Shown: positions 20,714 through 45,875 of the stretch, in pieces
Numbering within the stretch: position 1 is the first letter of the stretch
Layout of the letters: every line of letters begins with the position of its first letter
DNA from: Terriglobia bacterium
GTDB taxonomy: Bacteria > Acidobacteriota > Terriglobia > JAJPHL01 > JAPKYU01
Direction of reading: 5' to 3'
Assembly (NCBI GenBank): GCA_965206645.1
Contig: CBDBKE010000004.1
Span: 2,016,001-2,080,000 of the forward strand
Length of the DNA: 64,000 bases
The notes under the pieces: model-generated
What the model saw: only the letters and a program-made list of their open reading frames with translations
Told to the model about the DNA's origin: nothing
Databases searched by the model: none
Program-made: the position numbers and the translations under genes

Positions 20714-21607
20714 ATGTCCAACCAGGGAACTGATCGCACAAAGCTGACCTTCTCACAAGCGGAGGGAATCAATCCTCTTCCGAAACCTGCAGCCTTGGGT
20801 ACATTGTCCCAGGAAGCACGGGTTTCTCTTTGGAACACCACCTACCAGAGCCTCTTGACTGCGAAGAAGTCCTCAAGCGAGATATACCCACCCATAGAGG
20901 ACTGCATAACGGATCCGTGGAAAAAGATTCTGCACCACTACCACACATCCTACCTATACAAGCCGACGGATGAGTTTACTACTGATTTTGCGGTACACAA
21001 GAACGATCTAAAACATCTCTTCATGAAGGGCGAATACAACCGGGTATTCGATTTTCTCCAAGTCGTCCTCAGACATAGACCGTCCCCGTACAAATTCCGT
21101 GACGCCGTCGCATCCGTTTTGGAACATTGCATGTGTGCATATGCAGTCGTCGAGGATGGCCCCACAATTGTTCCAATGGCGCTGCCGGAACAACGGGAAT
21201 TTGTTCAAAAAGCCTTTCAGGTGTTGAAGTCCGGGCCGTTCGAAGGAGCACGGTCTCACCTTCGCAAGGCAGTCAAATGTATCAACGACGGTGATCCGGC
21301 CGGAAGCGTCCGTGAGAGCATTCACGCTGTCGAATCGGTAGCCAAGCGCCTCGACGCAGATGCGGCAACGTCATTGAAACCAGCACTCGATGCGCTGTCG
21401 CAGAAGGTAGCCCTTCATGGTGCATTCAAGAAGGGAATCGGGAATCTCTACGGCTATACCAGCAATGAAGATGGCATACGCCACGCTCTCCTTGACGAGC
21501 AGGCGAATGTCGATACAGACGACGCCGTCTTTATGTTTGGCGCTTGCACATCCTTCGCGGCCTACTTGGTCAACAAGGCGCGCAAGGTCGGGCTGCTCGA
21601 ACCATAG
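20714..21607 (+). CDS. AbiJ-NTD4-like putative defence protein
   Basis: TFSQAEG...SLWN N-terminus; ESIHAVES...LYGYTSNEDGIRH C-terminus. Confidence 0.65.
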   Translation: MSNQGTDRTKLTFSQAEGINPLPKPAALGTLSQEARVSLWNTTYQSLLTAKKSSSEIYPPIEDCITDPWKKILHHYHTSYLYKPTDEFTTDFAVHKNDLKHLFMKGEYNRVFDFLQVVLRHRPSPYKFRDAVASVLEHCMCAYAVVEDGPTIVPMALPEQREFVQKAFQVLKSGPFEGARSHLRKAVKCINDGDPAGSVRESIHAVESVAKRLDADAATSLKPALDALSQKVALHGAFKKGIGNLYGYTSNEDGIRHALLDEQANVDTDDAVFMFGACTSFAAYLVNKARKVGLLEP

Positions 21608-21646: not shown

Positions 21647-21825
21647 GAATCAGGCAGGCGTCTTCCACGGTTTTCTCCCAACTCCTTCCGTTCGTCGCAA
21701 TTACACGGTTTTGGGGCGTCCGCTTTCGCTCGCAACGCCTACGGCCTAGCCCGCTTGCTGGGCGAGTTTTCTGACGGTTTCTTGACGGTAGTTGCTGCCA
21801 CGGCCATGCTCTACGGGCTGCGCAG
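21647..21825 (+). repeat. Repeat A copy 3
   Basis: GAATCAGGCAGGCGTCTTCCACGG...; homology ends just before the IS481-like element. Confidence 0.85.
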
Positions 21826-21830
21826 TACCT

Positions 21831-23198
21831 TGTCCCTGGCGAATTGCTAGTTTACGGCCTAATTCCTGGGTTTAGCGGTTCTTGCTAAGATGCTGAGATA
21901 CGCAATCTCGTTATCCTTTTAGTCCATGTCATGGCTACTCTTACCCGGTTCTTGGGTCCGGGTGGCATTCGCTCTGTGATCGCCGAGTCCGTTCTCGCCA
22001 AGCAACAACTCCTGATCCTCAATCGTTCGCGACAGCGGTCACCCAATCTACGCACTTCAGATCGCCTCGTCGCCGGCCTGTGTGCTCTCCTCATCCGACC
22101 CGCCCGCCTGATCCGCTCAGCAATCGTGCTGAAACCTTCGACTCTCTTGAACTTCCACCAGGTTATGAGGAATCGAAAATATCGCCTGCTCTTCTCCTCC
22201 AAGTACAGAGGTAAGCCCGGACCAAAGGGGCCCAACAAAGAACTCATTGAAGCCGTCGTCCAGATGAAGCAACGCAATCCCGCCTGGGGCTGTCCGCGAA
22301 TTGCTAAACAGATTGCCTTGGCTTTCGACATCCCCATCGACAAAGACGTTGTTCGAAGGATTCTCGCCAGCCACTATCGGCCGAAAAAGGACTCCGGTGG
22401 TCCATCCTGGCTGACCTTCATTGGCCACATGAAGGACAGCCTCTGGAGTATAGATCTGTTCCGGTGCGAATCGGCCACGTTGCGGACCCGCTGGGTCTTG
22501 GTCGTCATGGATCAATACACCCGCCGGATCATTGGGTTCGGCGTCCACGCCGGAACCGTCAATGGCGTCGCACTTTGCCGCATGTTCAACCGCGCCATTC
22601 GATGGCTACCCTGTATGCCCAACTACCTCAGCTCCGACCATGATCCCCTGTATCGGTTTGGGCAGTGGCAAGCCAATCTGCGGATCCTGGAAGTGACCGA
22701 AATCAAAACCGTCCCCTATGTTCCCCTGTCCCATCCCTTTGTGGAACGGTTGATCGGCACGATTCGACGCGAGTATTTGGATCGCACGTTGTTCTGGACG
22801 ACGGCGGACCTGGAGAACAAGCTGCTCGATTTCAGGACATATTTCAATGCGTATCGCTCGCACACTGGACTGGAGGGGAGAACGCCTGATCCAGTCACGC
22901 CTATACCACGACCAGTCGCCAGGCTCCATTCCTATGGATGGCAACGCCACTGCAGAGGCCTCTATCACACCCCAATGACTGCCTGATTCTCCAAAGACTG
23001 GTGCTCCCTGTGTAACCGGCGGACATCGGTAGGCGGGCACTTCCTACGAAACCATTCGCTGTTTGAGCTTGTCAACGCGGAGCGGTTGTCTGATCTGATT
23101 GTTTCGCTGCTACCGAGGGTACTCCGCCAGTGTGCACTCGCCTCACTGGGGCAGCGGTCACGGGTAGAATCGCTCAACATATCAATTCGCAATGGACA
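21831..23198 (+). mobile_element. IS481-like (rve integrase core) element; CDS 21931-22986
   Basis: Ends TGTCCCTGGCGAATTG / CAATTCGCAATGGACA; WSIDLF, SDHD and VERLIGTIRRE motifs. Confidence 0.8.
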
Positions 23199-23365
23199 GG
23201 CTACCTCTCCTCTTCTCCTTTCACTCTCTCCCTTCTTTTCCATAGCTTTACACCCATTCAGGGACTCTGCTTTCGCTCAGCACATAACCCTTTTGGGCTG
23301 TTTGACTTGCATTTCTGACACATTTTCGGCACAGCAGGAGTGAAAGAGCCCTCCGGTCAAAATAT

Positions 23366-24580
23366 CTACGGAGCTTTCTCCGGAAATAATCCGGGCATCC
23401 ACCGCCAGGCTAGCGTTGCGGGGAACGTGAGGCGTAGTGGCGCGCGAGGGCTTTCGGAAACCAGCACTCCCTTATCCACCAGAGCCGAGACAATGCGGCG
23501 GGCTTGCCGCTCACCTGTGCCGACAACAGTGGCGGCGTCTCCGCGGGGCAGTTCCCCGCGGTAGAGGACTGCTTCCAGAATACTGCCGGATTTTAGAGGT
23601 AGGCTTCCCAGCCTGATTTCCTCTTCCGCCCACAACAGAATTCGGGTGCGGAGGCGGTCTGGCTGAACCAAGCCCTCCATGAAGGATACTTGGTCAATGC
23701 AGACGCTTAGAAAGAACCGAGTAAACTCAGCAATGGCTTCTTCACTTAAGGTGCCTCGCCCGTCCAGATCGTTGCGGCGTGTCAGATCGCAGTTGGCAAG
23801 ATGGGTTTTGTACTGCTCGACGTTGCGGGCAAGACCTCGTGCGACTGACCAGACCGCACCGGTATCAAGCAGCTCCAGCAACATACTATGCGACATCAGC
23901 CGCGCCACTCGGCCATTGCCATCCAGGAACGGGTGAATCCATAGCAGCCGATGGTGGGCCGCCGCCGTTGAGATAACCAACTCGGTCCTGCCGATACTCC
24001 CGTAAATCTCCTCGAAGCGTTTCAGAAAGCGCGGTACGGCGCCGGGGCTGATGGCGAGATGGCCTCCTACCCGAATGTCACGCTTCCTCAACTCACCCCG
24101 TACAAGGCGGATGCGCTCGTTGGTAACCGGTTCTTCGACCCAGAGGAGATCCTCGGGCAGCAACTCGCAAAAACGACGGTGGATTTCACATATCCCTTCG
24201 GCTCTGATGGAGTGGCCCCTTCGCAGGCCACCAGCATCGATCCATTGCTGAACGGAGATATGCGCCTTGGCTTCGAACTGCAGGTTGCGTTTGCGGGCAT
24301 CCTGGCTGTACTCGTTTTTGAGCGCCCTTTCGATTTCCACCGGATGCGTGTCATGTCCCTCAATGAGGTTGGAATAGTAACAGTTCATGGCCCGCACCAA
24401 ATCGGCGAGCGAGGCCAACAAACTTGGGGGCAGACTCCGACGAAAACCAGCGGTTTTCTGTGTGAGATCGAATGCGAGGTCGGTAATCGCCCCCCGGTGC
24501 CGGGAGCCCTGGCTGATCAGCAGAGGCTCCATAAGGGAGACGATCTCGCCTCGATCTTCCAGTTCTATGTCCGCTATCAT
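23366..24580 (-). CDS. Fic family protein with a C-terminal HTH
   Basis: HPFLDGNGRVAR motif; YSNLIEG. Confidence 0.92.
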   Translation of the reverse strand: MIADIELEDRGEIVSLMEPLLISQGSRHRGAITDLAFDLTQKTAGFRRSLPPSLLASLADLVRAMNCYYSNLIEGHDTHPVEIERALKNEYSQDARKRNLQFEAKAHISVQQWIDAGGLRRGHSIRAEGICEIHRRFCELLPEDLLWVEEPVTNERIRLVRGELRKRDIRVGGHLAISPGAVPRFLKRFEEIYGSIGRTELVISTAAAHHRLLWIHPFLDGNGRVARLMSHSMLLELLDTGAVWSVARGLARNVEQYKTHLANCDLTRRNDLDGRGTLSEEAIAEFTRFFLSVCIDQVSFMEGLVQPDRLRTRILLWAEEEIRLGSLPLKSGSILEAVLYRGELPRGDAATVVGTGERQARRIVSALVDKGVLVSESPRAPLRLTFPATLAWRWMPGLFPEKAP

Positions 24581-24775: not shown

Positions 24776-27423
24776 TGACCAGACCGATTTTTTGTACCAA
24801 CCGTAGTGAGAGTTCACATCGCAGCCTGGGGCTGTGAAACTGGTTTCAGTGGCAGGGGAGGGCTATAGAGTCTGTGTGAAAACCGCTCTTGCGAGTCACG
24901 TATAATGCGCCTTAAGGGGGCGCGATGAAATTCTTGACCTACAACCCGGAGCAAGCGTATCTGCTACCGCCCAGCGTGCGGGAGGTGCTGGGAGAAGATC
25001 ACATCTGTTTTTTTGTGCACCAAGTCGTGGAGCGGCTGGAACTGAGTGCGTTTGAGCAGGGCTACGTGGAAGAAGGCCGCCCGGCCTATCATCCGGCGCT
25101 GTTGCTGAAGGTGTGGCTGTATGCCTACGCGCTGGGCGTGACCTCGGCCCGCCGTCTGGAACAGCGGGTGCGGGAGGACCTGGCGTTCCGTTATCTGGCG
25201 GCCGGAGCGGGGCCGGACTTTTGGACGCTGAACCAGTTTCGGACGCGGCACGCCCGTGCCCTGAACGATCTGTTCACACAGGTGGTGGAGTTGGCGCGGT
25301 CGCTGGGGATGGGGCGGCTGGGACACGTGGCCATGGACTCGACGCGGGTGGCGGCCAACGCCTCGCAGGACCGGGTGGAGACGGTGGCCAAGTTGAGGGC
25401 AGAGCGAGCCAAAATTCGGCGGCAGATTCGTCGCTGGCAGAAACAATGTGACACGCAGTCCTGCGAGGAAGCGGCTGGCCAGCAACTGAGCGGCAAGCAG
25501 ATGGCAGCGCTGGAGAAGCGGCTGGAAGAAATCCCGCGATGCCTGGAGCGGTTGCGCAAAAGCGGGCTGAAGCGGCGTTCGGAAACCGATCCCGACAGCC
25601 GGTTTTTGCGCGACCGCAAGGGATTCACGCTGGGTTACACGGCGGAGGTGGCGGTCAGCGAAGATCATCTGATTGTCGAGCAGCACGTGGGGCAAAACGC
25701 CACCGACAACGCGACGCTGGTCCCTCTGGTGGAGGCGGTCGAGCGGCGCTGCCGGGAACGCCCGCAGAAGGTCAGCGCCGACAGCGGCTTCTTTTGCTTG
25801 GAGACCATCGTGGAACTGGCCCAGCGTGGCCTGGACGTCTATGTGCCCGACTCGAACTTGGCGCGGGAACTGAACCGAGGCCAACGCGCGCCCGGAGCAC
25901 CTGCTGTACGGCATCCGGAACATCGGCGAATGCGACGCAAGCTGCGCGACCCGGCCGGCCGGGCGGTTTATCAGCGGCGCAAGGCGATCGTGGAACCAGT
26001 GATCGGGGTTTTGAAAGAACAGCGTGGAATGCGGCAGTTCCGGCGGCGGGGCCTGGAGAAGGTCGCGGTGGAGTTCGCGCTGGCCGCAACGGCCTTCAAC
26101 CTCACCCGCCTGTGGCGCAACAAACCGAAGCTAAATCAGGAAGGCTAGTTCAGCAGACTCCCGGACCGGCGACTCGGCGAAGATCGAAACACCAGAATTC
26201 TGGAGCGAATCATGATCCCTTTTGATTTCCAGCCAGCTAAACCGAGTTTCCACACAGGCTCTATAGGCCCCCGGCGCCGGGGGCCTATAGGCGAGCGCCG
26301 AGTGCGGCCGCACCGTGTTGTATTGCACCCTCCACTGTTCAATCACCACCTGTGCCTCCTTCAACGAGTAGAAGATCTCTCCATTCAGGCATTCGTCCCG
26401 CAGCTTCCCATTGAAACTCTCGCAGTACCCGTTCTCCCAGGGACTGCCCGGTTCGATGTACAGTGTCCCGGTCCCTAGATTTGCCAACCACTGGCGCAGT
26501 TGTTTAGCGATGAACTCGGGACCATTGTCGGATCGAATCTGTTCCGGTATCCCTCGCCACAACATCACGTCCGACAACGCCTCAATGATTTGTTGGCTGC
26601 CCATCCTCCGCTCCACCCGGATCGCCAGGCATTCCCGCGTGTACTCATCCAGCAAGGTCAGCAGCCGCAGCGTTCTCCCCTCGTGCGTTCTGGCACTCAT
26701 GAAGTCGTAGCTCCACACGTGGTTCGGTCGCTCCGGCCTCAGTCGTACACAGGAACCGTCGTTCAGCCACAGCCGTCCTCGCGGCCTTTGTTTTTGCGGC
26801 ACTTTCAGCCCTTCCCGCCGCCAAATCCGCTGCACCCGGTCCTTGCCCACTTCCCAGCCCGCACTCCGCAGCAACGCTGTGATCCTCCGGTAGCCATATC
26901 GCCCGTAGTTCGCTCCCAGGGCAATGATCGCTCGGGTCAGAGCATCCTCGTCCACCCGATGAATCGGCTCGTATCGTTGTGTCCCTCGCCATTGCCCCAG
27001 CAGCCGGCAGGCATGCCGTTCCGACAACCCGTGTTGCTCCCACGCACGCTCCACCGCACAACGCCGCCGCTCAGGGCTCAGAAGTTTCCCTGTGCCACAT
27101 CCCGCAGTACCTGCTTCTCCAGAGAAAGCTCCGCTACCAACCGCTTCAGCCGCGTGTTTTCCTTCCCCAACTCCTTCAGCCGTTTTGCCTGCACCACCTT
27201 CAGCCCGCCGTATTCCTTCCGCCACCGGTAGTAGGTTTGGGTGTGGATTCCAGCTTCTTTGCAGGCTTGGGGCGCAGTCTTCCCGTTCCCCATCTGCACT
27301 TCTATCTGCCGTAGCACCGCTACAATCTGCTCCGGCTTGTAACTCCTTGTCGGCATGACCTCACTTCCTCCTCAAGTGGATTCTCTCTCTTTCCACTTGG
27401 TACAAAAAGTGCCGGTCAGGTCA
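24776..27423 (-). mobile_element. IS3-family element, interrupted by IS1182
   Basis: Near-identical to 28847-30096 in reverse orientation; orfA 27078-27356. Confidence 0.95.
24868..26261 (+). mobile_element. IS1182-family element; transposase 24925-26148
   Basis: Ends GAGTCTGTGTGAAAAC / GTTTCCACACAGGCTC; TATA duplication; GRPAYHP, MDST, ADSG and RKAIVEPV motifs. Confidence 0.93.
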
Positions 27424-28342
27424 AGATGACTCGCTCCTCAGTCCCAGCCAGCTTGCCACCGTAAGGCGGCACGCCGACAGGTTGTTGCGCGACGCATCAG
27501 CCCATGGCCGGTTTCCGACGCCGATTGATGACCTGATGGACGCGGCGAAGCTGACCATTGTGGACGACGAGGTGCTGAACAAAAGCCTGCTGCGTCAATT
27601 TGTCAGAAAAGCGAAATTCGGCGTCGCGACGGTCAAATCTGCGTTGAGCAAGGTATTGGGGCTCTTCGAGTCTCATGACCGACTCGTCGTCATCGACAAG
27701 AACACTCCCAAGCCCCGCAAACCCTTCATTAAACTGCATGAAGCCGGCCATGGCTCACTGCCGCACCAGTCCAAGGTCTACCGTCTGATTCACGACTGTG
27801 AAAAGACGCTCGACGCCGAAATCACCGACCTGTTCGAGAGAGAGGCGAATGTCTTCGCGTCGGAGGCCTTGTTTCAGGGCGAAGTCTTCGCCAAGAAAGC
27901 CCAGGAGTTAAACTTCGGCATCAAGACTCCCATAGCGCTTGCACGCAAATTCGGTGCTTCCAACTACGCGACCTTCCGCCGCTTCGTCACCACGAATCCC
28001 TGCGCCTGTTGTGTCGTCGTTCTGGAGCCGCCAGGCTATGACTCCGAGGGCGAATTGAGCGCCGACGTACGGCGCGTCGTTATGTCCAAATCCTTCGCGA
28101 CGATATACGACGACAAGAGGCTCTGCGCCACCGTGACCGAGGACCACCCGCTCGTGCCGGTTGTCTCCGTCAACGGGCGTCGCATGACTTTTGAACAGGA
28201 GATCCTGCTAATGGACCGTAACCACGAGGAAAGGGTCTGTATCGCCGAAGCCTTCAATACCACTCACCAGACACTGGTTCTCATCCGAGACACAGGGTTC
28301 CGGAGGCGGGCCGGCATCGTTATTCCACAGGTCGCTTTTTAG
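27424..28342 (+). pseudogene. ImmA/IrrE (CapP-like) metallopeptidase, 5'-truncated by IS3
   Basis: HEAGH, EREANVFA, an HTH (LARKFGAS) and a GAF-like C-terminus; the frame runs back to the IS3 end. Confidence 0.75.
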
Positions 28343-28612: not shown

Positions 28613-28846
28613 ATGAGCGACCAAGACGCGTTCGAGCGCATCCTGGCGTCGTTGTACGACGCCAGGATGGAGGATACCCGCTGGCCGGCCACCTCGGCCC
28701 TGATTGACGAGGCCTGCGGCCTGACGGGCAATGCCCTCCTGGTCGGCGAAGGCCCGAAGAACGATATCCGGGTCCTCTTCGTCGGGCTCTACTACCGGGG
28801 GCAGCGCCGCACCGATCTGGAGCGTGAGTACCTCAAAGTCTACCAT
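28613..28846 (+). pseudogene. N-terminus of a sensor/LuxR-type regulator, truncated by IS3
   Basis: FERILASLYDA...RWPATSALIDEACG pattern; ends at the IS3 IRL. Confidence 0.55.
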
Positions 28847-30096
28847 TGACCTGACCGGCACTTTTTGTACCAAGTGGAAAGAGAGAGAATCCACTTGAGG
28901 AGGAAGTGAGGTCATGCCGACAAGGAGTTACAAGCCGGAGCAGATTGTAGCGGTGCTACGGCAGATAGAAGTGCAGATGGGGAACGGGAAGACTGCGCCC
29001 CAAGCCTGCAAAGAAGCTGGAATCCACACCCAAACCTACTACCGGTGGCGGAAGGAATACGGCGGGCTGAAGGTGGTGCAGGCAAAACGGCTAAAGGAGT
29101 TGGAGAAGGAAAACACGCGGCTGAAGCGGTTGGTAGCGGAGCTTTCTCTGGAGAAGCAGGTGCTGCGGGATGTGGCACAGGGAAACTTCTGAGCCCTGAG
29201 CGGCGGCGTTGTGCGGTGGAGCGTGCGTGGGAGCAACACGGGTTGTCGGAACGGCATGCCTGCCGGCTGCTGGGGCAATGGCGAGGGACACAACGATACG
29301 AGCCGATTCATCGGGTGGACGAGGATGCTCTGACCCGAGCGATCATTGCCCTGGGAGCGAACTACGGGCGATATGGCTACCGGAGGATCACAGCGTTGCT
29401 GCGGAGTGCGGGCTGGGAAGTGGGCAAGGACCGGGTGCAGCGGATTTGGCGGCGGGAAGGGCTGAAAGTGCCGCAAAAACAAAGGCCGCGAGGACGGCTG
29501 TGGCTGAACGACGGTTCCTGTGTACGACTGAGGCCGGAGCGACCGAACCACGTGTGGAGCTACGACTTCATGAGTGCCAGAACGTACGAGGGGAGAACGC
29601 TGCGGCTGCTGACCTTGCTGGATGAGTACACGCGGGAATGCCTGGCGATCCGGGTGGAGCGGAGGATGGGCAGCCAACAAATCATTGAGGCGTTGTCGGA
29701 CGTGATGTTGTGGCGAGGGATACCGGAACAGATTCGATCCGACAATGGTCCCGAGTTCATCGCCAAACAACTGCGCCAGTGGTTGGCAAATCTAGGGACC
29801 GGGACACTGTACATCGAACCGGGCAGTCCCTGGGAGAACGGGTACTGCGAGAGTTTCAATGGGAAGCTGCGGGACGAATGCCTGAATGGAGAGATCTTCT
29901 ACTCGTTGAAGGAGGCACAGGTGGTGATTGAACAGTGGAGGGTGCAATACAACACGGTGCGGCCGCACTCGGCGCTCGGCTATAGGCCCCCGGCGCCGGG
30001 GGCCTATAGCCCTCCCCTGCCACTGAAACCAGTTTCACAGCCCCAGGCTGCGATGTAAACTCTCACTACGGTTGGTACAAAAAATCGGTCTGGTCA
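28847..30096 (+). mobile_element. IS3-family element, intact (orfA 28914-29192, orfB to 30058, -1 frameshift at GGGAAAC)
   Basis: TG...CA terminal repeats; complete DDE motif. Confidence 0.95.
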
Positions 30097-30147
30097 CTAT
30101 CTGCCCCTCGATTATTCCTATTGGAGAGCGAAGGAGGCGGGCAGATT

Positions 30148-31113
30148 ATGAGCGCCGCGAGTGGCCTGGAACACCTGAAACCATTTCTACCGGGCTTAGA
30201 GAGCGCTCTGGAAGATTCCGAAGTCAGCGAGATCATGATTAACGGCCCCGGCAATGTCTGGGTCGAGCGGGCCGGGCGGTTGACGGCACATGACGCGCCG
30301 GACCTGGACGAATCGGCCCTCCTACGGGCAGCCATCCACATCGCGCGTCCGTTGGGCCTGGACCCGGCGAGCTCGCCGATTGTCGATGCGCGCCTGGACG
30401 ACGGCTCGCGGGTTGCCATCTGTGTTCCGCCCGCGAGCCCCACGGTGGCGATCACCATGCGGCGCTTTGGCAAGCGGGCGTTCTCGGCGGATGATCTCGT
30501 GAAGCAAGGCGCACTCTCTGAAAACGTACGGGCGGAAGCCGAGCGGGTGTTGCGCTCCCGGCGCAACATCCTGGTTTCAGGCGGCACCGGATCGGGCAAG
30601 ACCACCCTGCTTAACGCACTTATTGAATTGCTTCCCGACGACGAGCGCATCGTCGCCATCGAGGACACCCTGGAGCTTCGCATTGAGCGCTCGAATTGCG
30701 TCCGCTTCGAGGCTCGGGGGATCGACAGCGGCTCGGTGACGATCCGCGATCTTGTGCGCCATGCGCTGCGTCACCGCCCGGATCACATCGTGGTGGGCGA
30801 GGTGCGCGGCGGGGAGGCGGCGGACCTGCTGCAAGCCTTGAACACCGGACACGGCGGCTCCCTCACCACCGTACACGCCAACAACGCCGAGTCGGCCTTG
30901 TCGCGCATCGCCAGTTGCGCCATGCAGGGCGGCGGTGAGCTTCCCTGGGAAGTCACCTGCCGGGGCGTGGTGGACGGCATCGCTATGGTGATTCACATGA
31001 CCCGCCGAGAGGGACGTCGGTTCGTGGAGGAAGCGCTGCTCGTCCAGGGCTATGACGCGCCACAGAACCACTGGATCATCAAGCCGATCTGGAGGGAACA
31101 CGATGACGGATGA
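30148..31113 (+). CDS. VirB11/TrbB/CpaF family ATPase (module A)
   Basis: SEIMIN, Walker A GGTGSGKT, IEDTLEL, IVVGEVRG and NTGHGGSLTTVH. Confidence 0.92.
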   Translation: MSAASGLEHLKPFLPGLESALEDSEVSEIMINGPGNVWVERAGRLTAHDAPDLDESALLRAAIHIARPLGLDPASSPIVDARLDDGSRVAICVPPASPTVAITMRRFGKRAFSADDLVKQGALSENVRAEAERVLRSRRNILVSGGTGSGKTTLLNALIELLPDDERIVAIEDTLELRIERSNCVRFEARGIDSGSVTIRDLVRHALRHRPDHIVVGEVRGGEAADLLQALNTGHGGSLTTVHANNAESALSRIASCAMQGGGELPWEVTCRGVVDGIAMVIHMTRREGRRFVEEALLVQGYDAPQNHWIIKPIWREHDDG

Positions 31114-31301
31114 AGACTCTCGAGGACTTCGACCGGGAGCTCGGCCGGGGCGGTGAGGAGACGCTGGAAGTCCCGGCCTGGATCGCCGAACAATACGGCG
31201 TCTTTCCCGAAGACGCAGGCCGCCGGACTCGCCGATCCGGGACGGAAGGTGGATCTGAAGGAGCGCTCGGTCCGGCGTGGAGAGTAGGGAGGGAAAGATG
31301 A
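31110..31301 (+). CDS. Small hypothetical protein (module A)
   Basis: ATGA overlaps on both sides; paralog at 34494-34772. Confidence 0.6.
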   Translation: MKTLEDFDRELGRGGEETLEVPAWIAEQYGVFPEDAGRRTRRSGTEGGSEGALGPAWRVGRER

Positions 31302-31516
31302 GCCTTGACGGAGAAGCGCCAGATGCCCCGATCACGGTGAAGGCCGCCGCCCGTTTCCTGGGCGTCAGCCCCTCGCTGGTGTATGCTTACGTCGAGCGAA
31401 AGCAGATTCCCCATTACCGCATGATGGGCCGCTCGATCCGCTTCCGACGGTCGGAGTTAGCCGGGTGGCGCCAGCAATTTCATGTGAATGGAGGAATCGA
31501 TGAACAAGACAGGTAG
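31298..31516 (+). CDS. Excisionase-like HTH_17 protein (module A)
   Basis: TVKAAARFLGVSPSLVY...IPHYR..RSIRFRRSEL. Confidence 0.85.
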   Translation: MSLDGEAPDAPITVKAAARFLGVSPSLVYAYVERKQIPHYRMMGRSIRFRRSELAGWRQQFHVNGGIDEQDR

Positions 31517-32660
31517 ACCGAGAAATACCGCTGGTAGCCTGTACCTCCGGCGCAATTCACGCGTCTGGTGGATGAGCTATCGAGAGCAGAACGGGAGGTG
31601 GAGACAGCCCTCGACAGGGCAGAGAGAAAAAGGGGAAGCCGAGAAGGTGATGCGCAAACGGTTGGTGGCCCGCGATGAGGGGTTGCTGCCGAGCGCCGCG
31701 CCGGGCGGGGAGATCAGGTTCAACGAGTGGGCGGACTGGTTCCTTGAGAACCGATCCAAACCACCCTTCCGGAGCGAGAAGACTCACTTGCAGAACCTCG
31801 GCGCGTTGAAGTTCCTGAGGCCCCGGTTCGGCAAGAACAGACTATCGGACATCACACCGGAAGATATCGAATCGTACCTGATGACCAGATTGAATACAGG
31901 CAAGCGGGTGCATACCAAGTTGGGGCTGCAACTTCGCGGCAGGCTCAAACCTGCCACCGTGCATCAGGAGTTTCGCGTCCTGAGACGCATCCTGAACGTG
32001 GCGGTGAAGAAGCGACGGCTGGCGGTCAATCCGTGTAATGGGGTGGAGTTTCCGGTCGCGTTGGCTGGTGCGACGCGCAAGCCTCACTATCTGACCGCCT
32101 CGAAGCAGGCCTGGCTGGAAGCCTGCGCGCCCCTGTACCTGCGCAACATCATCGCGATCATGGTGGAGATGGGGCTGCGGCCCTATCGCGAGTTGATCCC
32201 GATGCGAAAGGGACAGGTCGATCTGGAGAACGGGATCGTACATCTGCCGGATTCCAAGACGGTGAACGGCATCGCGGACATGCCGATGACCGACAGAACC
32301 CGCGAGGCGTTCGCCTCGCAGATGAAGCAGAGCGGCGATTCCAACTACCTGTTCCCGAGCCCGCGGATGGACTCGAGCAAGCCGCACATCACGACGGTGC
32401 AAAAGCTGTGGAACCGGACGCTCCAGCGCGCCGGGCTGCCGCATTTTTCGCTATACGAGCTGCGCCACACGTTTGCGACCCGGCTCAGCGCCGGGGGCGT
32501 AGCGGATCATTTCGTGACGCAGATGCTCCGACAAGGCGACGCCTCGGTGTTCAAGCGCTACAGCCAGGCGAAGCTCAACATGATGCGGGAAGCGCTGTCC
32601 AAGCTCGACCGACAGGCGAACGAGCACGGCGCGAGTTCCTTTACAGCGCTGGCCATCTAG
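31500..32660 (+). CDS. Tyrosine recombinase/integrase A
   Basis: RBS GGAGG; arm-binding-type N-terminus (GSLY...WWMSY); GLR, DSKT, YELRH and KRY. Confidence 0.92.
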   Translation: MNKTGRPRNTAGSLYLRRNSRVWWMSYREQNGRWRQPSTGQREKGEAEKVMRKRLVARDEGLLPSAAPGGEIRFNEWADWFLENRSKPPFRSEKTHLQNLGALKFLRPRFGKNRLSDITPEDIESYLMTRLNTGKRVHTKLGLQLRGRLKPATVHQEFRVLRRILNVAVKKRRLAVNPCNGVEFPVALAGATRKPHYLTASKQAWLEACAPLYLRNIIAIMVEMGLRPYRELIPMRKGQVDLENGIVHLPDSKTVNGIADMPMTDRTREAFASQMKQSGDSNYLFPSPRMDSSKPHITTVQKLWNRTLQRAGLPHFSLYELRHTFATRLSAGGVADHFVTQMLRQGDASVFKRYSQAKLNMMREALSKLDRQANEHGASSFTALAI

Positions 32661-32745
32661 AGCCAGTTTTTTGACAGTTTCTTTACAGTTCCGTCTTCGG
32701 CAACGAGACGCAAGGCAGACGGGTGATGAAAACAAATAAGTTAAA
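32661..32745 (+). other. att arm between integrase A and the tRNA 3' end
   Basis: AGTTTTTTGACAGTTTCTTTACAGT tandem motif shared with repeat A; IHF-like AAACAAATAAGTTA. Confidence 0.65.
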
Positions 32746-32822
32746 TGGTGGGCGGTGGAGGGCTCGAACCTCCGACCTCCTGCTTGTAAGGCAGGCGCTC
32801 TGACCAACTGAGCTAACCGCCC
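32746..32822 (-). tRNA. tRNA-Val (anticodon TAC), CCA encoded
   Basis: GGGCGGTTAGCTCAGTTGGTCAGAGCGCCTGCCTTACAAGCAGGAGGTCGGAGGTTCGAGCCCTCCACCGCCCACCA folds as a cloverleaf. Confidence 0.97.
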
Positions 32823-32923
32823 GACTGAAATCACTCTATTGATTCTAAACCACTTCCGAATTTCGAAAAACTCCAGAACGCCCCCAGAGAGGGCCAAATA
32901 CCCCTCGACCGTGACAAAACCCC

Positions 32924-34066
32924 TCAATTTGGTCGCTCCGTGACAAAACTCCGGTTGGCCTCGTTTGCCATCCGGTTCAGCTTTTGTAAAGCCTCACGCT
33001 TCATTTGCAGCTTCATTTGCGAATATTTCTTGAACACTTTCGCGTCCCCTTGACGGAGAAGCTGCGTAACCCACTCGTCCGCCACTCCGCCGGCGCTCAA
33101 CCGTGTCGCGTACGTCGAGCGCAGATCGTAGATGCGGAAGTAAGGGACCTTGGCCCTTCGCGAAACGGCGTGCCAGACTGTCTTCAGAGTCTTTTGGTGC
33201 GTGCTTGGGTTATTGTGACTCGGGAAAAGCCAAGGGCCAGGCCCCGAGATTCGAATCTGACCACGAAACGCTTCAAGAGCAACGTTGGTCAGTGGGACCT
33301 CCGAGATTCCGTTGGGCGTCTTTGAATCCGCAATCCAGACCACCGCATTGTCCAGGTCCACCTGATCCTTTTTCATCGGCAGCAGCTCCTTGTATATGCG
33401 GAGTCCGGTCTCGGTGATGATCCGAATAATGTTTTGCAGATACTCGGGCGCTTGAAGTTCAACTCTCTGTTGTTCGGACCAGGATATGTAGTGCGGCCGG
33501 AAGAGCCCCTTGACTTTGACGGGGAACTCGACTCCCAGACACGGATTTGCCGGAAGCAGTTTCTTCCGCACCGCGACATTCAGCATTCGGCGAAGTACCC
33601 GCAATTCCTGATGCACCGTTGCGGGCTTGAGCCGCCCGCGCTGAACGACACCTACGGCAGTTCGGACTGGCACTCGATCCTGCAGCCGGCGCCGCAAGTA
33701 GAGCTCCACATCGTCGGCTGTGAGATCGCCCAAATTCCGGTCCTCGAAAGCCTTCTTAAGATGCGCGCTGCACCGCAGATTAGCTTCGTGGGTCCGGTGC
33801 GCGCGAATCGGAGGCTGCGAGTAATTCTCCAAGAAAAACTCCACCCAATCAGCAAATCGAAAATGCTCTCCTTTCCGGACGATGTCCAAGATCCTATCGT
33901 CCCTTGCCTGAAGGCGCTCTCGGAGCTTCCGCTGCGCCTCGTCCCAATTCTCGGTGAACGTCGACTCTCGGATCCGCTTACCGCTACGGTCCCGATAGGA
34001 CATCCAGAGAATCCTGCCGTCATTGCGTTTATAAACGGCGCCATCGTGTTTACTCGGCCTTGCCAT
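32924..34066 (-). CDS. Tyrosine recombinase/integrase B
   Basis: Paralog of integrase A; GLR, DSKT, YDLRS and KKY; direct repeats CCGTGACAAAAC at 32909 and 32938. Confidence 0.92.
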   Translation of the reverse strand: MARPSKHDGAVYKRNDGRILWMSYRDRSGKRIRESTFTENWDEAQRKLRERLQARDDRILDIVRKGEHFRFADWVEFFLENYSQPPIRAHRTHEANLRCSAHLKKAFEDRNLGDLTADDVELYLRRRLQDRVPVRTAVGVVQRGRLKPATVHQELRVLRRMLNVAVRKKLLPANPCLGVEFPVKVKGLFRPHYISWSEQQRVELQAPEYLQNIIRIITETGLRIYKELLPMKKDQVDLDNAVVWIADSKTPNGISEVPLTNVALEAFRGQIRISGPGPWLFPSHNNPSTHQKTLKTVWHAVSRRAKVPYFRIYDLRSTYATRLSAGGVADEWVTQLLRQGDAKVFKKYSQMKLQMKREALQKLNRMANEANRSFVTERPN

Positions 34067-34271
34067 TCTCCACCTCCTGTCTGAAGCTTGCGCGGAAGGG
34101 CTCGAGATCCGATTTGAGAAACCGGATGTTCCGGCCCATCACGCGGAGATGGGGAATCTGCTTTCGCTCGACCCAAAGATACACGGTTTGAGGGCTAACA
34201 CCAAGGTACATGGAAGCATCTCTAACGGTCAGGGGAAAATCCGTATTTCGCTGCTCTGCGCTCCCCGGCAT
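34050..34271 (-). CDS. Excisionase-like HTH_17 protein (module B)
   Basis: LTVRDASMYLGVSPQTVY...IPHLRVMGRNIRF. Confidence 0.85.
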   Translation of the reverse strand: MPGSAEQRNTDFPLTVRDASMYLGVSPQTVYLWVERKQIPHLRVMGRNIRFLKSDLEPFRASFRQEVENGKAE

Positions 34272-34493
34272 CAACTCTCCCCGTCCTTCCTCATGGCTGG
34301 TCCGGGCCATATTTGCCTTCCCTTAAGAGTCCAGAAAAAACGATTAGCGACCTGGGTGAAAGCTTGCCACGACGATTGCCCCACGCTGAAAACTCAGTCG
34401 CATCAGCGCTACACGCAGGTTGAAGTTCCGCTCTTGGGGCTTTGTTAAGTAGGGTCGCGCTGTCCGATCCGACCTCCGGAAAGGTGTTATGGC

Positions 34494-34772
34494 TTATCGC
34501 AGCACAGGGGAGCCACGAAAAATTTGAACGTGGTCTTGGGAAGGAGCGACGCGAACCCCCGTCCTCTCCCCTCTCCACGCCGGACCGAGCGCTTTACCAG
34601 ATCCACCTTCCGCCCCGGATCGGCGAGTCCGGCGGCCTGCGTCTTCGGGAAAGACGCCGTATTCCTCGGCGATCCAGGCCGGGACTTCCCGCGTCTCCTC
34701 ACCGCCCCGGCCGAGCTCCCGTTCGAAGTCTTCCAGAGTCTTCACTCGTATGATTTTTTCTTCATCCGTCAT
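34494..34772 (-). CDS. Small hypothetical protein (module B)
   Basis: KTLEDFERELGRGGEET.EVPAWIAE.YGVFPED is shared with 31110-31301. Confidence 0.6.
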   Translation of the reverse strand: MTDEEKIIRVKTLEDFERELGRGGEETREVPAWIAEEYGVFPEDAGRRTRRSGAEGGSGKALGPAWRGERTGVRVAPSQDHVQIFRGSPVLR

Positions 34773-35490
34773 CGTGTTCCCTCCAGATCGGCTTGATAAG
34801 CCAGCGGTTTTGCGGCGCGTCGTAACCCTGGACGAGCAGCGCTTCCTCCACGAACCGACGTCCCTCTCGCCGGGTCATGTGAATCACCATAGCGATGCCG
34901 TCCACCACGCCCCGGCAGGTCACCTCCCAGGGAAGCTCGCCGCCGCCCTGCATGGCGCAACTGGCGATGCGCGACAAGGCCGACTCGGCGTTGTTGGCGT
35001 GTACGGTCGTGAGGGAGCCGCCGTGTCCGGTATTGAGGGCTTGCAATAGATCAGCGGCCTCCCCGCCCCGGACCTCGCCCACCACGATGTGATCCGGGCG
35101 GTGGCGAAGCGCGTGGCGCACCAGGTTGCGGATCGTCACCGCGCCGGTTTCCAGCCCGCGAGCCTCGAAGCGGACGCAATTAGAGCGATCAATGCGAAGC
35201 TCCAGCGTGTCCTCGATGGCGACAATTCGCTCGTCATCCGGTAGTAGTTCGATCAGCGCATTGAGCAAGGTGGTCTTGCCCGAGCCGGTGCCGCCTGAAA
35301 CCAGAACGTTGCGTCGGGAGCACAACACCCGCTCGGCTTCCGCCCGCACGTTTTCGGGGAGTGCGCCTTGCCCCACCAGATCATCGGCGGAAAACGAGCG
35401 CTTGCCAAAGCGCCGCACCGTAATAGCCACGCGAGGACTTGCGGGCGGCACACAGATTGCAACCCGCGAGCCATCCTCCAAGCGGGCGGC
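34762..35490 (-). pseudogene. VirB11/TrbB ATPase (module B), 5'-truncated by repeat A copy 4
   Basis: Very similar to 30148-31113 from ARLEDGSR onward; the N-terminal part is replaced by repeat A. Confidence 0.88.
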
Positions 35491-35657
35491 GACTTTCCAC
35501 GGTTTTCTCCCAACTCTTTCCTCTCGTTGCTCTTACACGGTTTTGGGGCGTCTGCTTTCGCTCGCACGCCTACAGCCTAGCCCGCTTGATGGGCGAGTTT
35601 CCTGACGGTTTCTTGACGGTGGTTACTTCTACGGCCATGCTCTACTGGCTGCGCAGC
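35479..35657 (+). repeat. Repeat A copy 4
   Basis: Homology with copy 5 continues to about 35744. Confidence 0.85.
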
Positions 35658-36009
35658 ACGTTGTTGCAGTAATGGTTTTTGATCTGCTATAGCCCGGCTC
35701 GTCGTGAGGACCGTTTTGTCGAGCCATGGAATCTACTTTCCCTATTATCAATCGGGGCCAGGAGAGGAAACGATGCCGCGATTCAAGGAACATCAATTAC
35801 AACTAGTGGGCTTGATAGGTCGTTTTGAGACTGATTCATCATCGACTCACGTCCGTAACGCGCTCGCGGCGATAGGGCGCTTGAAGGATGCCGGAGCCAA
35901 AGTTTGGAATGAGGATCCCCAGAAACTACGCCGATGGCAAGAATATTGCGCCACTTTGTGGACGTTTCTCAACAGCAGTTTGCGACAACGCCGGCATCTT
36001 AAGAAGCAA

Positions 36010-36292: not shown

Positions 36293-38219
36293 ATGAACCT
36301 GCAAAGTAGTTTAAGACACCCTCACCTCAAGATTCCGCGGGCAATGATGCGGATGCAGACCCGCTGGCTTAGAAGATTCTACGACGAGGGCGAAGAGCAC
36401 TTCGACTTCGGGTTCAATAAACTGAAGGCCGAGACAGACCACCTTACGCCCGAGGAATGGGAGAAGGACGAGGATTTTTACCTCGAACAGCGCTACGACT
36501 TGAAGTCTTTGCGGGAGCTGAAAAGGCACTTCTCAATTGTTGGACTGTTCACGGTGTTCGAGATTGCCAGCTCAACCGGTCGATGCAACACAAGCGTTAA
36601 ATCGTTCTGCCGGAGTTTCAAACTCCAGCGTCTGACGGGGCCGTTCGTTCAGCTGACGTGCCACCTTGTTCAGATGCGCCTGAGAGTGCACCGACAAGTC
36701 CGTTCCCTTGGGGAAGTACTGTCGAAGTAGACCGTTGGTGTTCTCATTCGAACCGCGCTGCCATGGACTCTGAGGATCACAGAAGTATACGTCAATGTCG
36801 GTCGCCAACGTGAACCGTCGATGCTCGGCGAGCTCCAGGCCTCGATCCCAAGTCAGAGATTTGTACAGTTCCGTCGGCAGCTTCTTCGCGTGCTTGATGA
36901 GCGCCGACACGACCGTCTCCGTTTTCTTGCTGGATACTTTCGTAAGCATCACGTAGCGCGTATGACGTTCGACCAGAGTCGCAATGTGGCTGTTCTTCGA
37001 TCCGGACAGCAGATCGCCTTCCCAATGACCGGGCACGGCACGATCTTCGACCGAGGCCGGGCGCTCACGGATCGATACGATGTCGGTGATCTGTCCTCGT
37101 CCATGGCCTCTCAGACTTGCATGTCGGGATCGACGAATCGTCCGCTTTGACCGCAGATGCTGCATCAGCTCTGCCTTCAGCGCACCGCGGGCTTGAACAA
37201 ACAGGCTGCGGTAGATGGTCTCGTGAGACACGTGATAGGACGGATCCTTCGGATAGGCTCGTTTCAGCCAGCTGGCGATCTGCTCAGGCGACCAGTTTAT
37301 GCTGAGCTTTCTGGCCACTACCCGTCGTAGTTGTGGATGCTTGACCAGCTGACACCGCTTCGGCCGGCGGGCCCTCTCCCCGGCTTGCTCATCGGCCTCC
37401 GCTGCTCGATAGTCATTATCGCCGCCATTCCGCCGAATCTCCCGGCTCACCGTCGATGGTGAGCGACCCAGCAACCCGGCGATGGATCGTATCGATTGAT
37501 GTGCCGCAATGCCTCGAGAGATCTCTTCGCGCTCCGACAACGTCAGTGCCCAACATGAACGGCGTGGTGGCCGAGGACGGATGCCTCCGTACGGAGCAAG
37601 CTGATGGTAAACAGACGATGGCTGCTTACAAAACACTCGTCCAATCGACTTGAGCGACTCCCCTCGTTTCCACCGATCCCACACCTCCTCCAGTTCCGCC
37701 AGCGTGTAACCGCGACGAGCTCTTTGCTTCATCCGCATACACTCCACCTCCTCCTTTCAAGGCAAAGTGTTGCGTCGATGGGTTGAGACCACCATGTTTA
37801 TCCGGAATACGCTGCAGGAGCTTTACTTGGCGGGTGCGGATGTGCCAAAGCTGAATAAGCGCTGGTGTCTCGACAAGATGAAGGAGATATTCAAGGCAGC
37901 AGGCGTGCCCATAACGGAACCCGATCGTGACTGGAATTCCATCAAGAAATTACAGGCCATCCGAAACTGCATAACCCACCTCGACGGCCGACCTGACGAG
38001 GAAACCGTGCGGCAGCTTAAAGGCTATAACTGTCACGTAATCAAGGGCGTGTGGATGAAACTTCCTGCTAGCTATTTTGAGGAGAGCGCCGACTTGGTCG
38101 AACGAATCTGCGAGTGCATCGTCGAGGACTGCCAGAACGCCGTGAAGGAAAAGCGTGTCAAGGCGCGTGCCCGCAAGGCCCGAGGCGAGAAGACGACATC
38201 ATCCGCACGTTCCTCTTAG
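36293..38219 (+). pseudogene. HEPN-domain protein interrupted by IS30
   Basis: Removing IS30 and one AT restores the frame FTVFE-MFIRN; contains the R-X4-H motif RNCITH. Confidence 0.75.
36565..37793 (-). mobile_element. IS30-family element; transposase 36572-37747
   Basis: WSPEQI, GHWEGD, TWDRG and QRGSNENTN motifs; 2-bp AT duplication. Confidence 0.95.
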
Positions 38220-39685: not shown

Positions 39686-41931
39686 CTAGCTTGCTAGCTG
39701 AGGATGATCCGAAGGTGGAATGGTGGGCCGTGAGGGGTGAAGGATCAGGACGCCCGGCGCGGTTGTGTAGTTCAGGCCGGACCAGGCTAGCTTGATCTTC
39801 TTCAACTCCCGGATCACCTTGCGTTGGAAGTTGCGGACGGTGACTCTGTCGCTGGCCTTGTCCGGGTGTGCTCCGAACTGGCGGTACACCTGTCGCCAGG
39901 AGAGACGCTGCGGAGCGGGAAGGTGCGGTAGACCAACCAGAGGTAGAGGTCGAGGCCCAGCGAAGAGCGTTTGAGCGCCGTGAGGGTGTTCATATCGAGC
40001 GGTACAGGGTGGCGGATTGACCTGCCTGGCGATTTCCGGACCAGCTGAAGCCTGAGAGAATGGCGCCCTCGGAGAAACGAGGGAGCCATGAAGAAGACCC
40101 GGTTTACCGAAGAGCAGATGGTGACGATCCTCCGCGAGGCCGATCAGCGGCCCGTTCCGGAGGTGGCCAAAAAGAACGGCGTCAGCGCCCAGACGCTCTA
40201 CGCCTGGCGGAAACACTTCGGCACGTTGGAGCCCGCCGATGTGAAGCGGCTGCGGCAGCTCGAGCAGGAGAACGGCCGGCTGAAAAAGATGGTGGCCGAT
40301 CGAGATCTGGAGATCGACGTGCTCAAGGAGATCACCCGAAAAAAATGGTAGGCGCACGCGTGCGCCGGCCGCAGGTCGCGTATGCACGTGCACGCGGTCT
40401 GTCGGGTCGCCGCGCGTGCGCCTTGCTCTCCGTCGCACGGTCCACGCTGGGCTACCAGTCGCGGCTGGTCGACCGGGATGCCCCGGCGCTGGCCGCGATG
40501 CGTCGTCTGGCGGCGCAGTATCCGTGGTACGGCTATCGCCGGATTCGGATTTTCCTAAAACGCGAAGGGCACACGATGAGCACGGACCGGACCCATCGCC
40601 TCTGGCGCCAGGCGGGGTTGCAGGTGCCTCGGCGGCGGCCGCGGCGCCGGGTCGCCCTGAGCCGGCCCCGCCCGGTGCCCGCCACTGCGGTCAATCACGT
40701 CTGGGCGTACGACTTCGTGTTCGACACCTGCGCGAATGGGCAGACGCTCAAGTGCCTCACCGTCGTCGACGAATGGACCCGCGAGTCACTCGCGATCGAC
40801 GTGGCCGGCGGCATTCGGTTCGGGCGCGTTATCGAGGTGCTCACGCAGCTCGTGAGCCTCCACGGAGCCCCACGTTACCTCCGGTCCGACAACGGCCCCG
40901 AGTTTGTCGCGGGTGCGATTCTCCGGTGGCTGCTCCAGGCGCAGATCGAAACCGCGCTCATCGAGCCGGGGAAGCCGTGGCAGAATGCGACCGACGAATC
41001 GTTCAACGGGAAGTTCCGCGACGAGTATCTGAGCCTGCAGTGGTTTCGGAACCGCGTGGACGCGAAGGTGGGGATCGAGCAATGGCGACGGCACTACAAC
41101 GACGTGCGACCGCACTTGAGCCTTGGCTATCTGACGCCAGCCGAGTTCAAAGCGCAGCTCCGTGCTGGCTCGGATGACGGTGGGCGCTCGCCGGCGATGC
41201 CGGCTCACGCTGACCAAGAAGAACACGAGAGCGACTTAACCATGCCGACTGGCGCTGTTCTCCAGTAATCGGTGGTCCGAAGAAAGCCGGCAGGTCAGGA
41301 TGATCTCGTTGAAGAACGCCTCAGCTAAATAAATCTTGCTGTCCCACAGCATCGGCTCGTCAGGCTTACGCTCGTTCCACCAAAAATCAGTAAGGTCGGC
41401 AATCAGAGCGGTGGCGGTCGTTTCGCGCCGCGCATCCCCATAGACCAGCGAGACGCTGCAACCAAACAGCCGCTTCATCTGGTTGCGGAGGCGGGTGTAC
41501 TTTCCGCCGCTGGTGCTGTAAACACCGAGCGCTCGCATGAAGTCCGCCAGCGATTTCCCCAGAACCAGCTCGCGGTTTTGGGTTCGTACCGCTTCGGTGC
41601 AGAGCCAGGCCAGGATCAAACGCGGCAGGTTGCCGAAGGGGAGCTTGTTGCCGCCCGTCACCGTCATGTAGAGGGTGAATGGCCCGTTGACGCGTTTGTA
41701 TTGAAGCCGGTTGCCGGGGTTGCTCCGGGGCAACGAGCAGAGCGCCATCGTTCGCGCCATAAAACCCCAGTCGGGGTCCGCTTCGCTGGCCCCGACCAAC
41801 TGGTTTACCTGATCGGCGAGGGTGAAGCCCCGCCGCGCCGGTGGTGGGGTTTCGCGGAGCGCCTTGACCGGCCCGTCCAGATCGGCGATGACTTCACCGA
41901 CGGGAACCAACTCGCCGCGTTGACGCTGCAT
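39686..41931 (-). pseudogene. RepA_C-type replication initiator interrupted by IS3
   Basis: GFMARTMALCSLP, LPFGNLPRLILAW and RLRNQMKRLF; rejoins as FFNEII-RHPVPLDM. Confidence 0.85.
40018..41297 (+). mobile_element. IS3-family element of a second type; orfA 40088-40351, orfB to 41268
   Basis: TGACCTGCC / GGCAGGTCA ends; GGAT duplication; A-run frameshift site; WAYDF and SDNGPEF. Confidence 0.95.
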
Positions 41932-45774: not shown

Positions 45775-45875
45775 CGCGCGCTGAAGTTCCTGAGGCCCCG
45801 GTTCGGCAAGCAGAAACTATCGGACATCACACCGAAGGATATCGAATCGTACCTGATGACCAGATTGAACACAGT
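45775..45875 (+). pseudogene. Internal fragment of an integrase A paralog, cut by repeat A copy 5
   Basis: ALKFLRPRFGKQKLSDITPKDIESYLMTRLNT matches about 31803-31898. Confidence 0.85.

Follow-up and report, generated by a model that had tools for sequence, protein, structure and literature searches.

How does a tRNA gene come to stand between two mirror-image copies of one mobile-element module? The question is raised by a 64,000-nucleotide (nt) stretch of a Terriglobia bacterium genome (assembly GCA_965206645.1, contig CBDBKE010000004.1, positions 2,016,001 to 2,080,000 of the forward strand; hereafter the window), in which the gene for tRNA-Val(UAC), anticodon TAC in the DNA, lies between a module A on its 3' side and a module B on its 5' side. 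Each module carries genes for a VirB11-type ATPase, a small open reading frame (ORF) product, an excisionase-like (Xis) helix-turn-helix protein and a tyrosine integrase (IntA and IntB, respectively). A preliminary description of the window had drawn attention to this arrangement, which we confirmed, the stop codon of IntA lying 85 nt from the tRNA gene's 3' end and that of IntB 101 nt from its 5' end (Table 1). Two elements from a single family with type IV secretion genes have, very probably, each taken the tRNA-Val(UAC) gene as attachment site, one from either side.

The genome surveyed comprises 4.41 Mb in four contigs (those named below are C1, C3 and C4) and has 50 tRNA genes, among which the gene in the window is the only tRNA-Val(TAC). 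A second copy, which the preliminary description had proposed to look for, is not among the 50, and within the window itself a search allowing up to three mismatches recovered only the gene and no fragment of it. The nearer a gene lies to the tRNA, the less alike its two versions are, with identities of 93% for the ATPase, 88% for the small ORF, 48-58% for Xis and 50% between IntB and IntA. The mirror-image arrangement around the tRNA is far beyond chance. The module itself is present at 11 sites in the genome.

We read the half-genes carried by the elements from the DNA downstream of ten integrase copies and from a genome-wide search with the tRNA. Three other copies of the IntA type are followed by the 85-nt spacer and then by the 3' end of tRNA-Pro(ggg), the 3' end of tRNA-Ala(ggc) or, on contig C1, nt 36-77 of tRNA-Val(TAC), this last copy bearing only that part of the gene; the spacer is near-identical in all three. 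Nucleotides 1-40 of tRNA-Val(TAC), for their part, occur at IntB-type copies at C3:8.7 kb and C4:1.97 Mb, at an IntB fragment at C3:425 kb and at one integrase designated D-like. At three of these four sites, those where the spacer was inspected, the fragment follows the integrase's own spacer, and in the two IntB-type copies whose flank was inspected (one on C3, the other at C4:1.97 Mb) this is the same 101-nt spacer as in the window. Past nt 40 the IntB-type and D-like copies switch to the arm of another element, beginning 'GGCTACCTCTCC...'. In the window this far arm, of a third 5'-side element type, is also seen at 23199-23340, where it is inverted relative to the tRNA and has no tRNA fragment.

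Across the genome we found six 5' fragments of tRNA-Val(TAC), nt 1-40 at four sites and nt 1-42 at the other two, and one 3' fragment (nt 36-77). Both nt 1-42 fragments are on contig C3, and about 100 nt later each has GTTTTGTCACGGTTTTGTCACGG, the repeat beside IntB; one of them, C3:689641-689682, is followed by B-type arm repeats. The search for displaced pieces that the preliminary description had recommended thus brought to light 5' fragments of nt 1-42 beside GTTTTGTCACGG arm repeats. Because of the carried half-genes, together with these displaced fragments beside arm repeats, we conclude that the gene's front half is carried, along with the region upstream of it, by B-type elements, and its back half by A-type elements. 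In the gene itself, nt 1 to about 36-42 make up the half found on B-type elements and nt 27-36 (approximately) to 77 the half found on A-type elements, and it is in the anticodon stem-loop that these blocks overlap. The genome's one tRNA-Val(UAC) gene is a hybrid of element-derived halves lying wholly inside mobile DNA, as had been suspected from the two related elements facing it; both of its flanks are element-derived, and the native 5' flank sits on another contig.

The order of parts in the element attachment site (attP) is common to both kinds: integrase gene, arm repeats, spacer with half-tRNA, anticodon stem-loop, some 100-130 nt, and arm repeats in the same direction. The anticodon stem CCTGC/GCAGG is common to several of the target tRNAs and may explain why near-identical integrases are found at different tRNAs. 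For tRNA-Pro(ggg) a displaced fragment of nt 33-77 lies 36.8 kb downstream. In one relative tRNA-Asp follows tRNA-Val; the region upstream of tRNA-Asp in the present genome contains no tRNA-Val remnant.

The same genome holds a second sandwich. The minus-strand gene for tRNA-Val(CAC) (C4:499984-500060) is flanked by two integrases, one facing its 3' end and one running toward its 5' end, each backed by genes for Xis, the small ORF and VirB11. This arrangement spans C4:497407-502830, outside the window, and its elements are intact. Here the displaced fragments lie on the same contig as the gene: a 5' fragment (nt 1-42) 69 kb off on the 5' side, with the box TGGTATAAT before it and GTTTTGATACAGTTTTGATACA, the repeat beside the 5'-side integrase, after it; and a 3' fragment (nt 28-77) 66.6 kb off on the 3' side, adjoining CCGTATCAAAAC repeats, which correspond to those next to the integrase on the 3' side. 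Each displaced fragment is thus found beside matching GTTTTGATAC repeats. At tRNA-Val(cac), a gene with a Peptidase_M78 domain adjoins the 5'-side element's far arm (locus L092).

Two genomes of the same genus (G006 and G008) place the Val(TAC) fragments in their chromosomal setting. The outer flank of C3:689641-689682 is conserved at 97% over 2.36 kb in G006 and at 80% over 0.7 kb in G008, and in both it leads again to only nt 1-40/42 of the gene followed by an element arm, D-like in G006 and of the 'GGCTACC' kind in G008. This flank is therefore what natively adjoins tRNA-Val(TAC) on its 5' side in the chromosome, and in all three genomes the 5' side of the site is occupied. The 'GGCTACC...' sequence is the far arm of a further 5'-side element type, and the junctions of IntB spacer, nt 1-40 and GGCTACC arm may have been left by stacked 5'-side elements. 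In G008 the complete tRNA-Val(TAC) gene is sandwiched as well: upstream on the same strand are Xis and an integrase 62% identical to IntA and 52% to IntB, and downstream on the other strand an IntA of 96% identity is accompanied by Xis, the small ORF and VirB11. Both genomes have a displaced Val(TAC) 3' fragment (nt 27-77), and behind it comes the roughly 190-bp unit of which the window has five copies; the unit is therefore the far arm of A-type elements. The nt 27-77 fragments mismatch at nt 32, placing the crossover 3' of that position, and with the 5' block ending at nt 42 we infer that the exact crossover would fall between nt 33 and 42. In two relatives of the same family, from other genera, tRNA-Val(tac) has no integrase within 1.5 kb.

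Beyond these close relatives we scanned one genome per species using an alignment of four integrases of the family. This matched 548 stretches, of which 480 were confirmed. We retained the 80 loci most like IntB (66-81% identity), almost all of them from assemblies whose record titles name Acidobacteriota. Among the 81 IntB homologues at these 80 loci, 60 have a tRNA on the same strand 58-130 nt downstream of the integrase, 16 face the 3' end of a tRNA on the opposite strand, three have no nearby tRNA and two run into a contig end. Homologues of IntB thus do flank tRNA 5' ends, the relation on which the preliminary description had made its proposal depend. The tRNA in the 60 same-strand cases is mostly Pro-tgg (53), with two each of Val-cac, Val-tac and Arg-tct and one Pro-ggg. 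At 5 of the 80 loci a second integrase, or an integrase remnant, lies across the same tRNA. Four further 3'-side loci (L039, L041, L051 and L059) have an element-type box AAGTGGTTTA(A/G)AAT in the 60 nt upstream of the tRNA, with no second integrase seen in the available DNA. Sandwiches or scars may be commoner than 5 in 80.

In five large genomes we looked for a second 5' copy of the tRNA-Pro gene with its nt 1-38. Four of them have an extra copy that is not a tRNA according to aragorn: it stops at nt 42 and continues into a conserved arm, 'ggggaatctgcttttcgctc' with arm repeats. These copies lie 188, 62 and 180 kb upstream in three genomes and on other contigs in the fourth; the fifth large genome has a complete second tRNA gene as its extra copy.

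A quick maximum-likelihood tree of 95 rows, excluding one row with an in-frame stop as well as partial matches and rooted with two distant integrases as outgroup, largely separates the two sides of insertion. All three IntB-type rows fall in a group of 67, of which 62 are 5'-side, four have no tRNA called and one is 3'-side. A clade of 18 rows (support 100) consists of 17 3'-side rows and one with no tRNA called, and IntA groups with the Val-cac pair. The minimum number of side changes on the tree is three. The side of insertion is thus bound to clade, IntB belonging to a reversed, 5'-side lineage inside the large 5'-side clade, and IntA to a classical, 3'-side lineage.

An element that replaces the front of a tRNA gene also replaces what lies before it. 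In 58 of the 60 5'-side loci a hexamer TAnA(A/C)T ends 17-19 nt upstream of the tRNA, whichever tRNA it is, and it is usually preceded by AAGTG(G/C)TT in the 5'-side spacers, again with any tRNA. A TAnA(A/C)T box at that distance is found at 6 of the 50 tRNAs of the present genome, ordinary-looking ones included. Between IntB and the tRNA in the window the -10-like TAGAAT occupies 32842-32847, 19 nt ahead of the first tRNA nucleotide, and a terminator-like hairpin (32871-32889) lies 3' of IntB. Taken together the element probably supplies the promoter of the rebuilt tRNA gene.

From these observations a scheme for the origin of the sandwich can be proposed. Both lineages would recombine in the anticodon stem-loop. 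Elements of the IntA lineage, with the 85-nt spacer and the 3' part of the tRNA (from about nt 27 to 77) beside the integrase gene, would insert downstream in the classical orientation; those of the IntB lineage, with a spacer of about 100 nt containing the -10-like box and with nt 1-42, would insert upstream and replace the front half and the promoter region. The landing side may be set by whichever half-gene stands between the core and the arm repeats. Every insertion would restore an intact anticodon stem-loop and leave the site open to an element of the other kind, so that one element of each kind would yield the mirror-image sandwich, with tRNA-Val(UAC) presumably transcribed from an element's promoter. 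Later insertions of insertion sequences (IS) and of further elements reduced both to stumps of about 2.6-2.7 kb.

Could the arrangement be an artefact or have another origin? A misjoin during assembly, bringing two modules together round the tRNA at a repeated element, is suggested by the 11 copies of the module, by the repeat-rich window and by public contigs too short to span the junction. We regard it as extremely improbable, because the separately assembled sister genome has the sandwich at tRNA-Val(TAC) too. The mirror arrangement moreover recurs at tRNA-Val(CAC) in the same genome and at 5 of the 80 loci elsewhere, and the spacer and 5' half-gene are intrinsic to other B-type copies. It is likewise very unlikely that both elements inserted in tandem on the 3' side and that an inversion across their backbones (93% identical) afterwards gave rise to the present geometry, leaving IntB with no real link to tRNA 5' ends. 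The modules do form long inverted repeats in a window that has undergone many rearrangements; however, B-type copies elsewhere bear the 5' half and not the 3' half of the tRNA, the displaced 5' fragments adjoin B-type arm repeats, a like geometry is seen in 60 of 81 homologues from other genomes, and far-end 5' fragments are present in four of the five large genomes. An inversion origin is contradicted by these findings and was rejected.

There is also little reason to believe that element B recombines outside the tRNA, either targeting intergenic DNA upstream or carrying a whole tRNA as cargo. An integrase may lie next to a tRNA 5' end by chance; yet the blocks of identity end inside the gene, at nt 40-42, at tandem and far-end junctions alike. 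Whole-tRNA cargo was rejected on the same grounds, as the fragments stop at nt 40-42 and none is a full tRNA according to aragorn.

Several observations nevertheless weigh against two-sided use of the gene, or against parts of that reading. The displaced Val(TAC) 5' fragments are on contig C3 and not beside the window, so a later rearrangement must be assumed. A displaced Val(TAC) 3' fragment with its P' arm is absent from the whole genome, which leaves element A, like B a truncated remnant, partnerless, so that its excision is not expected. Public short-read contigs from four runs covering 30100-35600 come in pieces of 89-830 nt, none of which spans IntA, tRNA and IntB; one loose contig end, at 32781, corresponds to the junction of 5' fragment and P' arm seen on C3. 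The value of 60 in 81 is a frequency among the most IntB-like of the 480 loci and not that of the whole family. Locus L053 (tRNA-Ala) is a 3'-side case nested in the 5'-side clade, on a tree from a quick search. A consensus scan of 32600-33000 for sigma-70-type promoters gave no site, hence none between IntB and the tRNA. Finally, no match to a relaxase family was found by Pfam among 20 element ORFs, of which several had no match at all and the left part of the element was incompletely scanned; the label 'conjugative' rests on the secretion and coupling genes for this reason.

We now turn to the elements and the rest of the window. The genome has 11 copies of the VirB11 gene and ten full-length integrases of the family (by tblastn), and five copies have a common backbone of 13.7-17 kb at 92-95% identity. 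The family is one of integrative elements that carry a tyrosine integrase along with a type IV secretion system. In the intact copy beside tRNA-Val(CAC), genes for ArdC, VirB3, a VirB4-like ATPase, VirB9/CagX, VirB10/TrbI, VirB6/TrbL, VirB8 and a TraG/TrwB-type coupling protein were identified, all of them lying upstream of VirB11-Xis-Int. The modules in the window are stumps of the right ends of such elements, of about 2.6-2.7 kb where the backbone in other copies is 14-17 kb, and keep VirB11 alone of the type IV secretion genes. Left-end boundaries drawn from pairwise BLAST fell in a repeat-rich surface-protein gene and in IS copies and were discarded; the element ends were defined from the tRNA fragments.

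Table 1. Features of the two modules and of the tRNA gene between them (window coordinates; domain matches from Pfam)
Feature	Position	Strand	Remarks
Multi-copy IS3-family insertion sequence	28845-30104		severs element A upstream of VirB11 gene
T2SSE/VirB11-type ATPase A	30121-31113	plus	PF00437, E 1.9e-49
Small ORF A, 63 amino acids (aa)	31110-31301	plus	no Pfam match
Excisionase-like HTH_17 protein A	31277-31516	plus	PF12728, E 3.8e-13
Tyrosine integrase A (IntA), 390 aa, intact	31488-32660	plus	PF00589, E 8.2e-18
P arm of element A (85-nt spacer, tRNA 3' flank)	32661-32745		arm-type repeats TTGACAGTTTCTTTACAGT at 32671-32689; repeat family D10
tRNA-Val(tac)	32746-32822	minus	no other tRNA in the window
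P arm of element B (101-nt spacer, tRNA 5' flank)	32823-32923	minus	
Tyrosine integrase B (IntB), 380 aa, intact	32924-34066	minus	PF00589, E 2e-15
Excisionase-like HTH_17 protein B	34050-34310	minus	PF12728, E 7.8e-12
95-aa ORF, B-lineage-specific	34291-34578	minus	no Pfam match
Small ORF B, homologue of small ORF A	34494-34772	minus	no Pfam match
VirB11-type ATPase B, 5'-truncated	34762-35481/35493	minus	residues 88-330 remain
Left-end arm (P') of A-type element, unit of about 190 bp	35481-35664	plus	interrupts ATPase B; repeat families D3, D9, D10

On the 3' side of the tRNA, 2.7 kb of element A are kept. The backbone homology starts no earlier than 30094, and the true start of ATPase A is likely the ATG near 30148. 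The IS3-family copy that cuts the element off has an ORF (29045-30058) with rve, rve_3 and HTH_21 domains, and its repeats of families D2 and D7 recur with 99% identity at 9411-9710 and 11837-12118. Small ORF A is conserved at 58-91% in nine other copies of the module. IntA copies of 90-97% identity are found at tRNA-Pro(ggg) and tRNA-Ala(ggc), next to the 3' end in each case, and beside the Val(tac) 3' half on C1, and a change of target seems to need just an exchange of half-genes. Sites of this identity class are C4:1015000-1016169, C4:1637932-1639101 and the window copy, the tRNAs being Ala-ggc, Pro-ggg and Val-tac.

On the 5' side, element B ends at 35493, where the unit of about 190 bp severs it, so that a stump of about 2.7 kb remains and the first 87 codons of ATPase B are missing. 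Small ORF B is 88% identical to small ORF A over 58 aa at 34572-34745 (tblastn). The 95-aa ORF is an extra gene with no counterpart in the order of module A, and is present only in the two other B-type copies, at 93-94% identity. The direct repeats and the motif noted earlier near IntB are there: CCGTGACAAAAC at 32909-32920 and again at 32938-32949, inside the last codons of IntB, and AATCAATAGAGTG at 32832-32844 on the minus strand. Both integrases share the aligned motifs ETGLR, DSKT, LR(H/S)T (as (Y/Y)xLR(H/S)T) and KxYSQ (as F-K-x-Y-S-Q), which we take to hold the catalytic Arg, Lys and Arg and the nucleophilic Tyr of tyrosine recombinases. Both elements in the window are dead stumps with intact integrase genes, the products of which may well be active.

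The five copies of the 190-bp unit in the window are at 2140-2330, 8785-8975, 21650-21833, 35481-35664 and 45875-46058. In each, no more than about 8-10 nt of likeness to the anticodon stem are left before unrelated DNA sets in; one copy interrupts VirB11 B and another an integrase gene fragment (45697-45875). This suggests repeated insertion at secondary sites, or elements nested in each other.

The window as a whole is a debris field of IS copies and element fragments. Transposase genes are dense (18374-19321, 21931-22986, 24925-26148, 26131-27225, 29045-30058, 36572-37747 and 40060-41268) and belong to DDE_Tnp_1, DDE_Tnp_1_5, DUF772, rve/rve_3 and HTH_38+rve families, many of them being near-identical repeats both in the window and genome-wide. 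Amid the element debris are genes with AbiJ_NTD4, Fic, Peptidase_M78 (IrrE-like) and RepA_C domains (20714-21607, 23366-24580, 27482-28342 and 41236-41931). A gene for a Sel1-repeat protein (44580-45494) has six copies of a 108-bp tandem repeat (repeat family D1).

How does the locus compare with systems already described? The element that Zhao and Williams reported is said to be a single one. Here, set against that single case, a whole clade is seen (60 of 81 homologues), with a backbone common to 3'-side lineages and with both kinds at one gene. Two articles (PMC6563490 and PMC1635311) cite Zhao & Williams 2002 for an element bearing the 5' part of a tRNA gene; like the B-type elements it would, on that account, sit upstream and have to supply a promoter. 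Four archaeal studies are cited alongside it. The review PMC8371274 states that a rebuilt bacterial tRNA gene keeps its original promoter with very few exceptions. It also describes pTN3-like integrases of Thermococcales (Cossu et al. 2017), in which half of a tRNA gene, the 5' one, serves as the chromosomal attachment site (attB), a situation 'seldomly encountered in bacteria'. As portrayed there, these resemble the B-type elements in using the tRNA 5' half as attB and in having the rebuilt gene expressed from element DNA. They belong to archaeal plasmids and viruses, whereas the present hosts are bacterial and the elements have type IV secretion genes. Unlike pTN3-like elements, the B type has a separate -10-like box and a terminator-like hairpin between integrase gene and tRNA.

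In PMC8371274 the anticodon stem is presented as an inverted repeat round a 7-nt loop, the layout of a tyrosine-recombinase core site, and the anticodon-loop sublocation of classical tRNA-targeting elements is attributed to Williams 2002, as cited in PMC1635311 and PMC8371274. Classical anticodon-loop integrative and conjugative elements (ICEs) resemble IntA, IntC and the 18-row clade in having the tRNA 3' part beside the integrase gene and a 3' fragment as direct repeat. Compared with them, element A in the window lacks its far end and most of its genes; without a far-end direct repeat of the tRNA 3' part it ranks as a truncated member of the classical integrators. IntA-type enzymes differ from those of the classical ICEs also in being 90-97% identical at three tRNAs (Val-tac, Pro-ggg and Ala-ggc).

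Integration on the 5' side is in itself already known, as a rare event. What appear to be new are a large bacterial clade with 5'-side insertion as its rule, its close relation to 3'-side lineages that have the same backbone, and the recurrent occupancy of one gene from both sides; none of these is described in the literature searched, which did not cover Zhao & Williams 2002 and Williams 2002 themselves.

A wider reading can be offered tentatively, as a real possibility short of a probable one. The large integrase clade, which is almost confined to records with the label Acidobacteriota, would be reversed as a rule, its elements replacing promoter and front half of tRNA genes, and a switch of side would need only the exchange of a half-gene between arm repeats and palindromic core, because backbone and attP layout are common to both kinds. 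The site would be partitioned between the two and not competed for, and the remnants might be unlosable because the native promoter has been carried away. If this is true, essential single-copy tRNA genes may gain both halves, promoter and 3' flank from elements.

By a near-universal rule, to which PMC8371274 allows very few exceptions in bacteria, integrative elements exchange the 3' part of a tRNA gene and spare its promoter. Finders of genome islands keyed to 3' tRNA fragments alone would miss the 5'-side class. Here closely related elements of the two orientations coexist in one genome, at the same tRNA and with the same backbone and arm layout, a natural pair on which one could test why the rule holds and what is needed to break it. 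For the organism, an essential single-copy tRNA gene can rely wholly on mobile DNA for its sequence and probably for its transcription.

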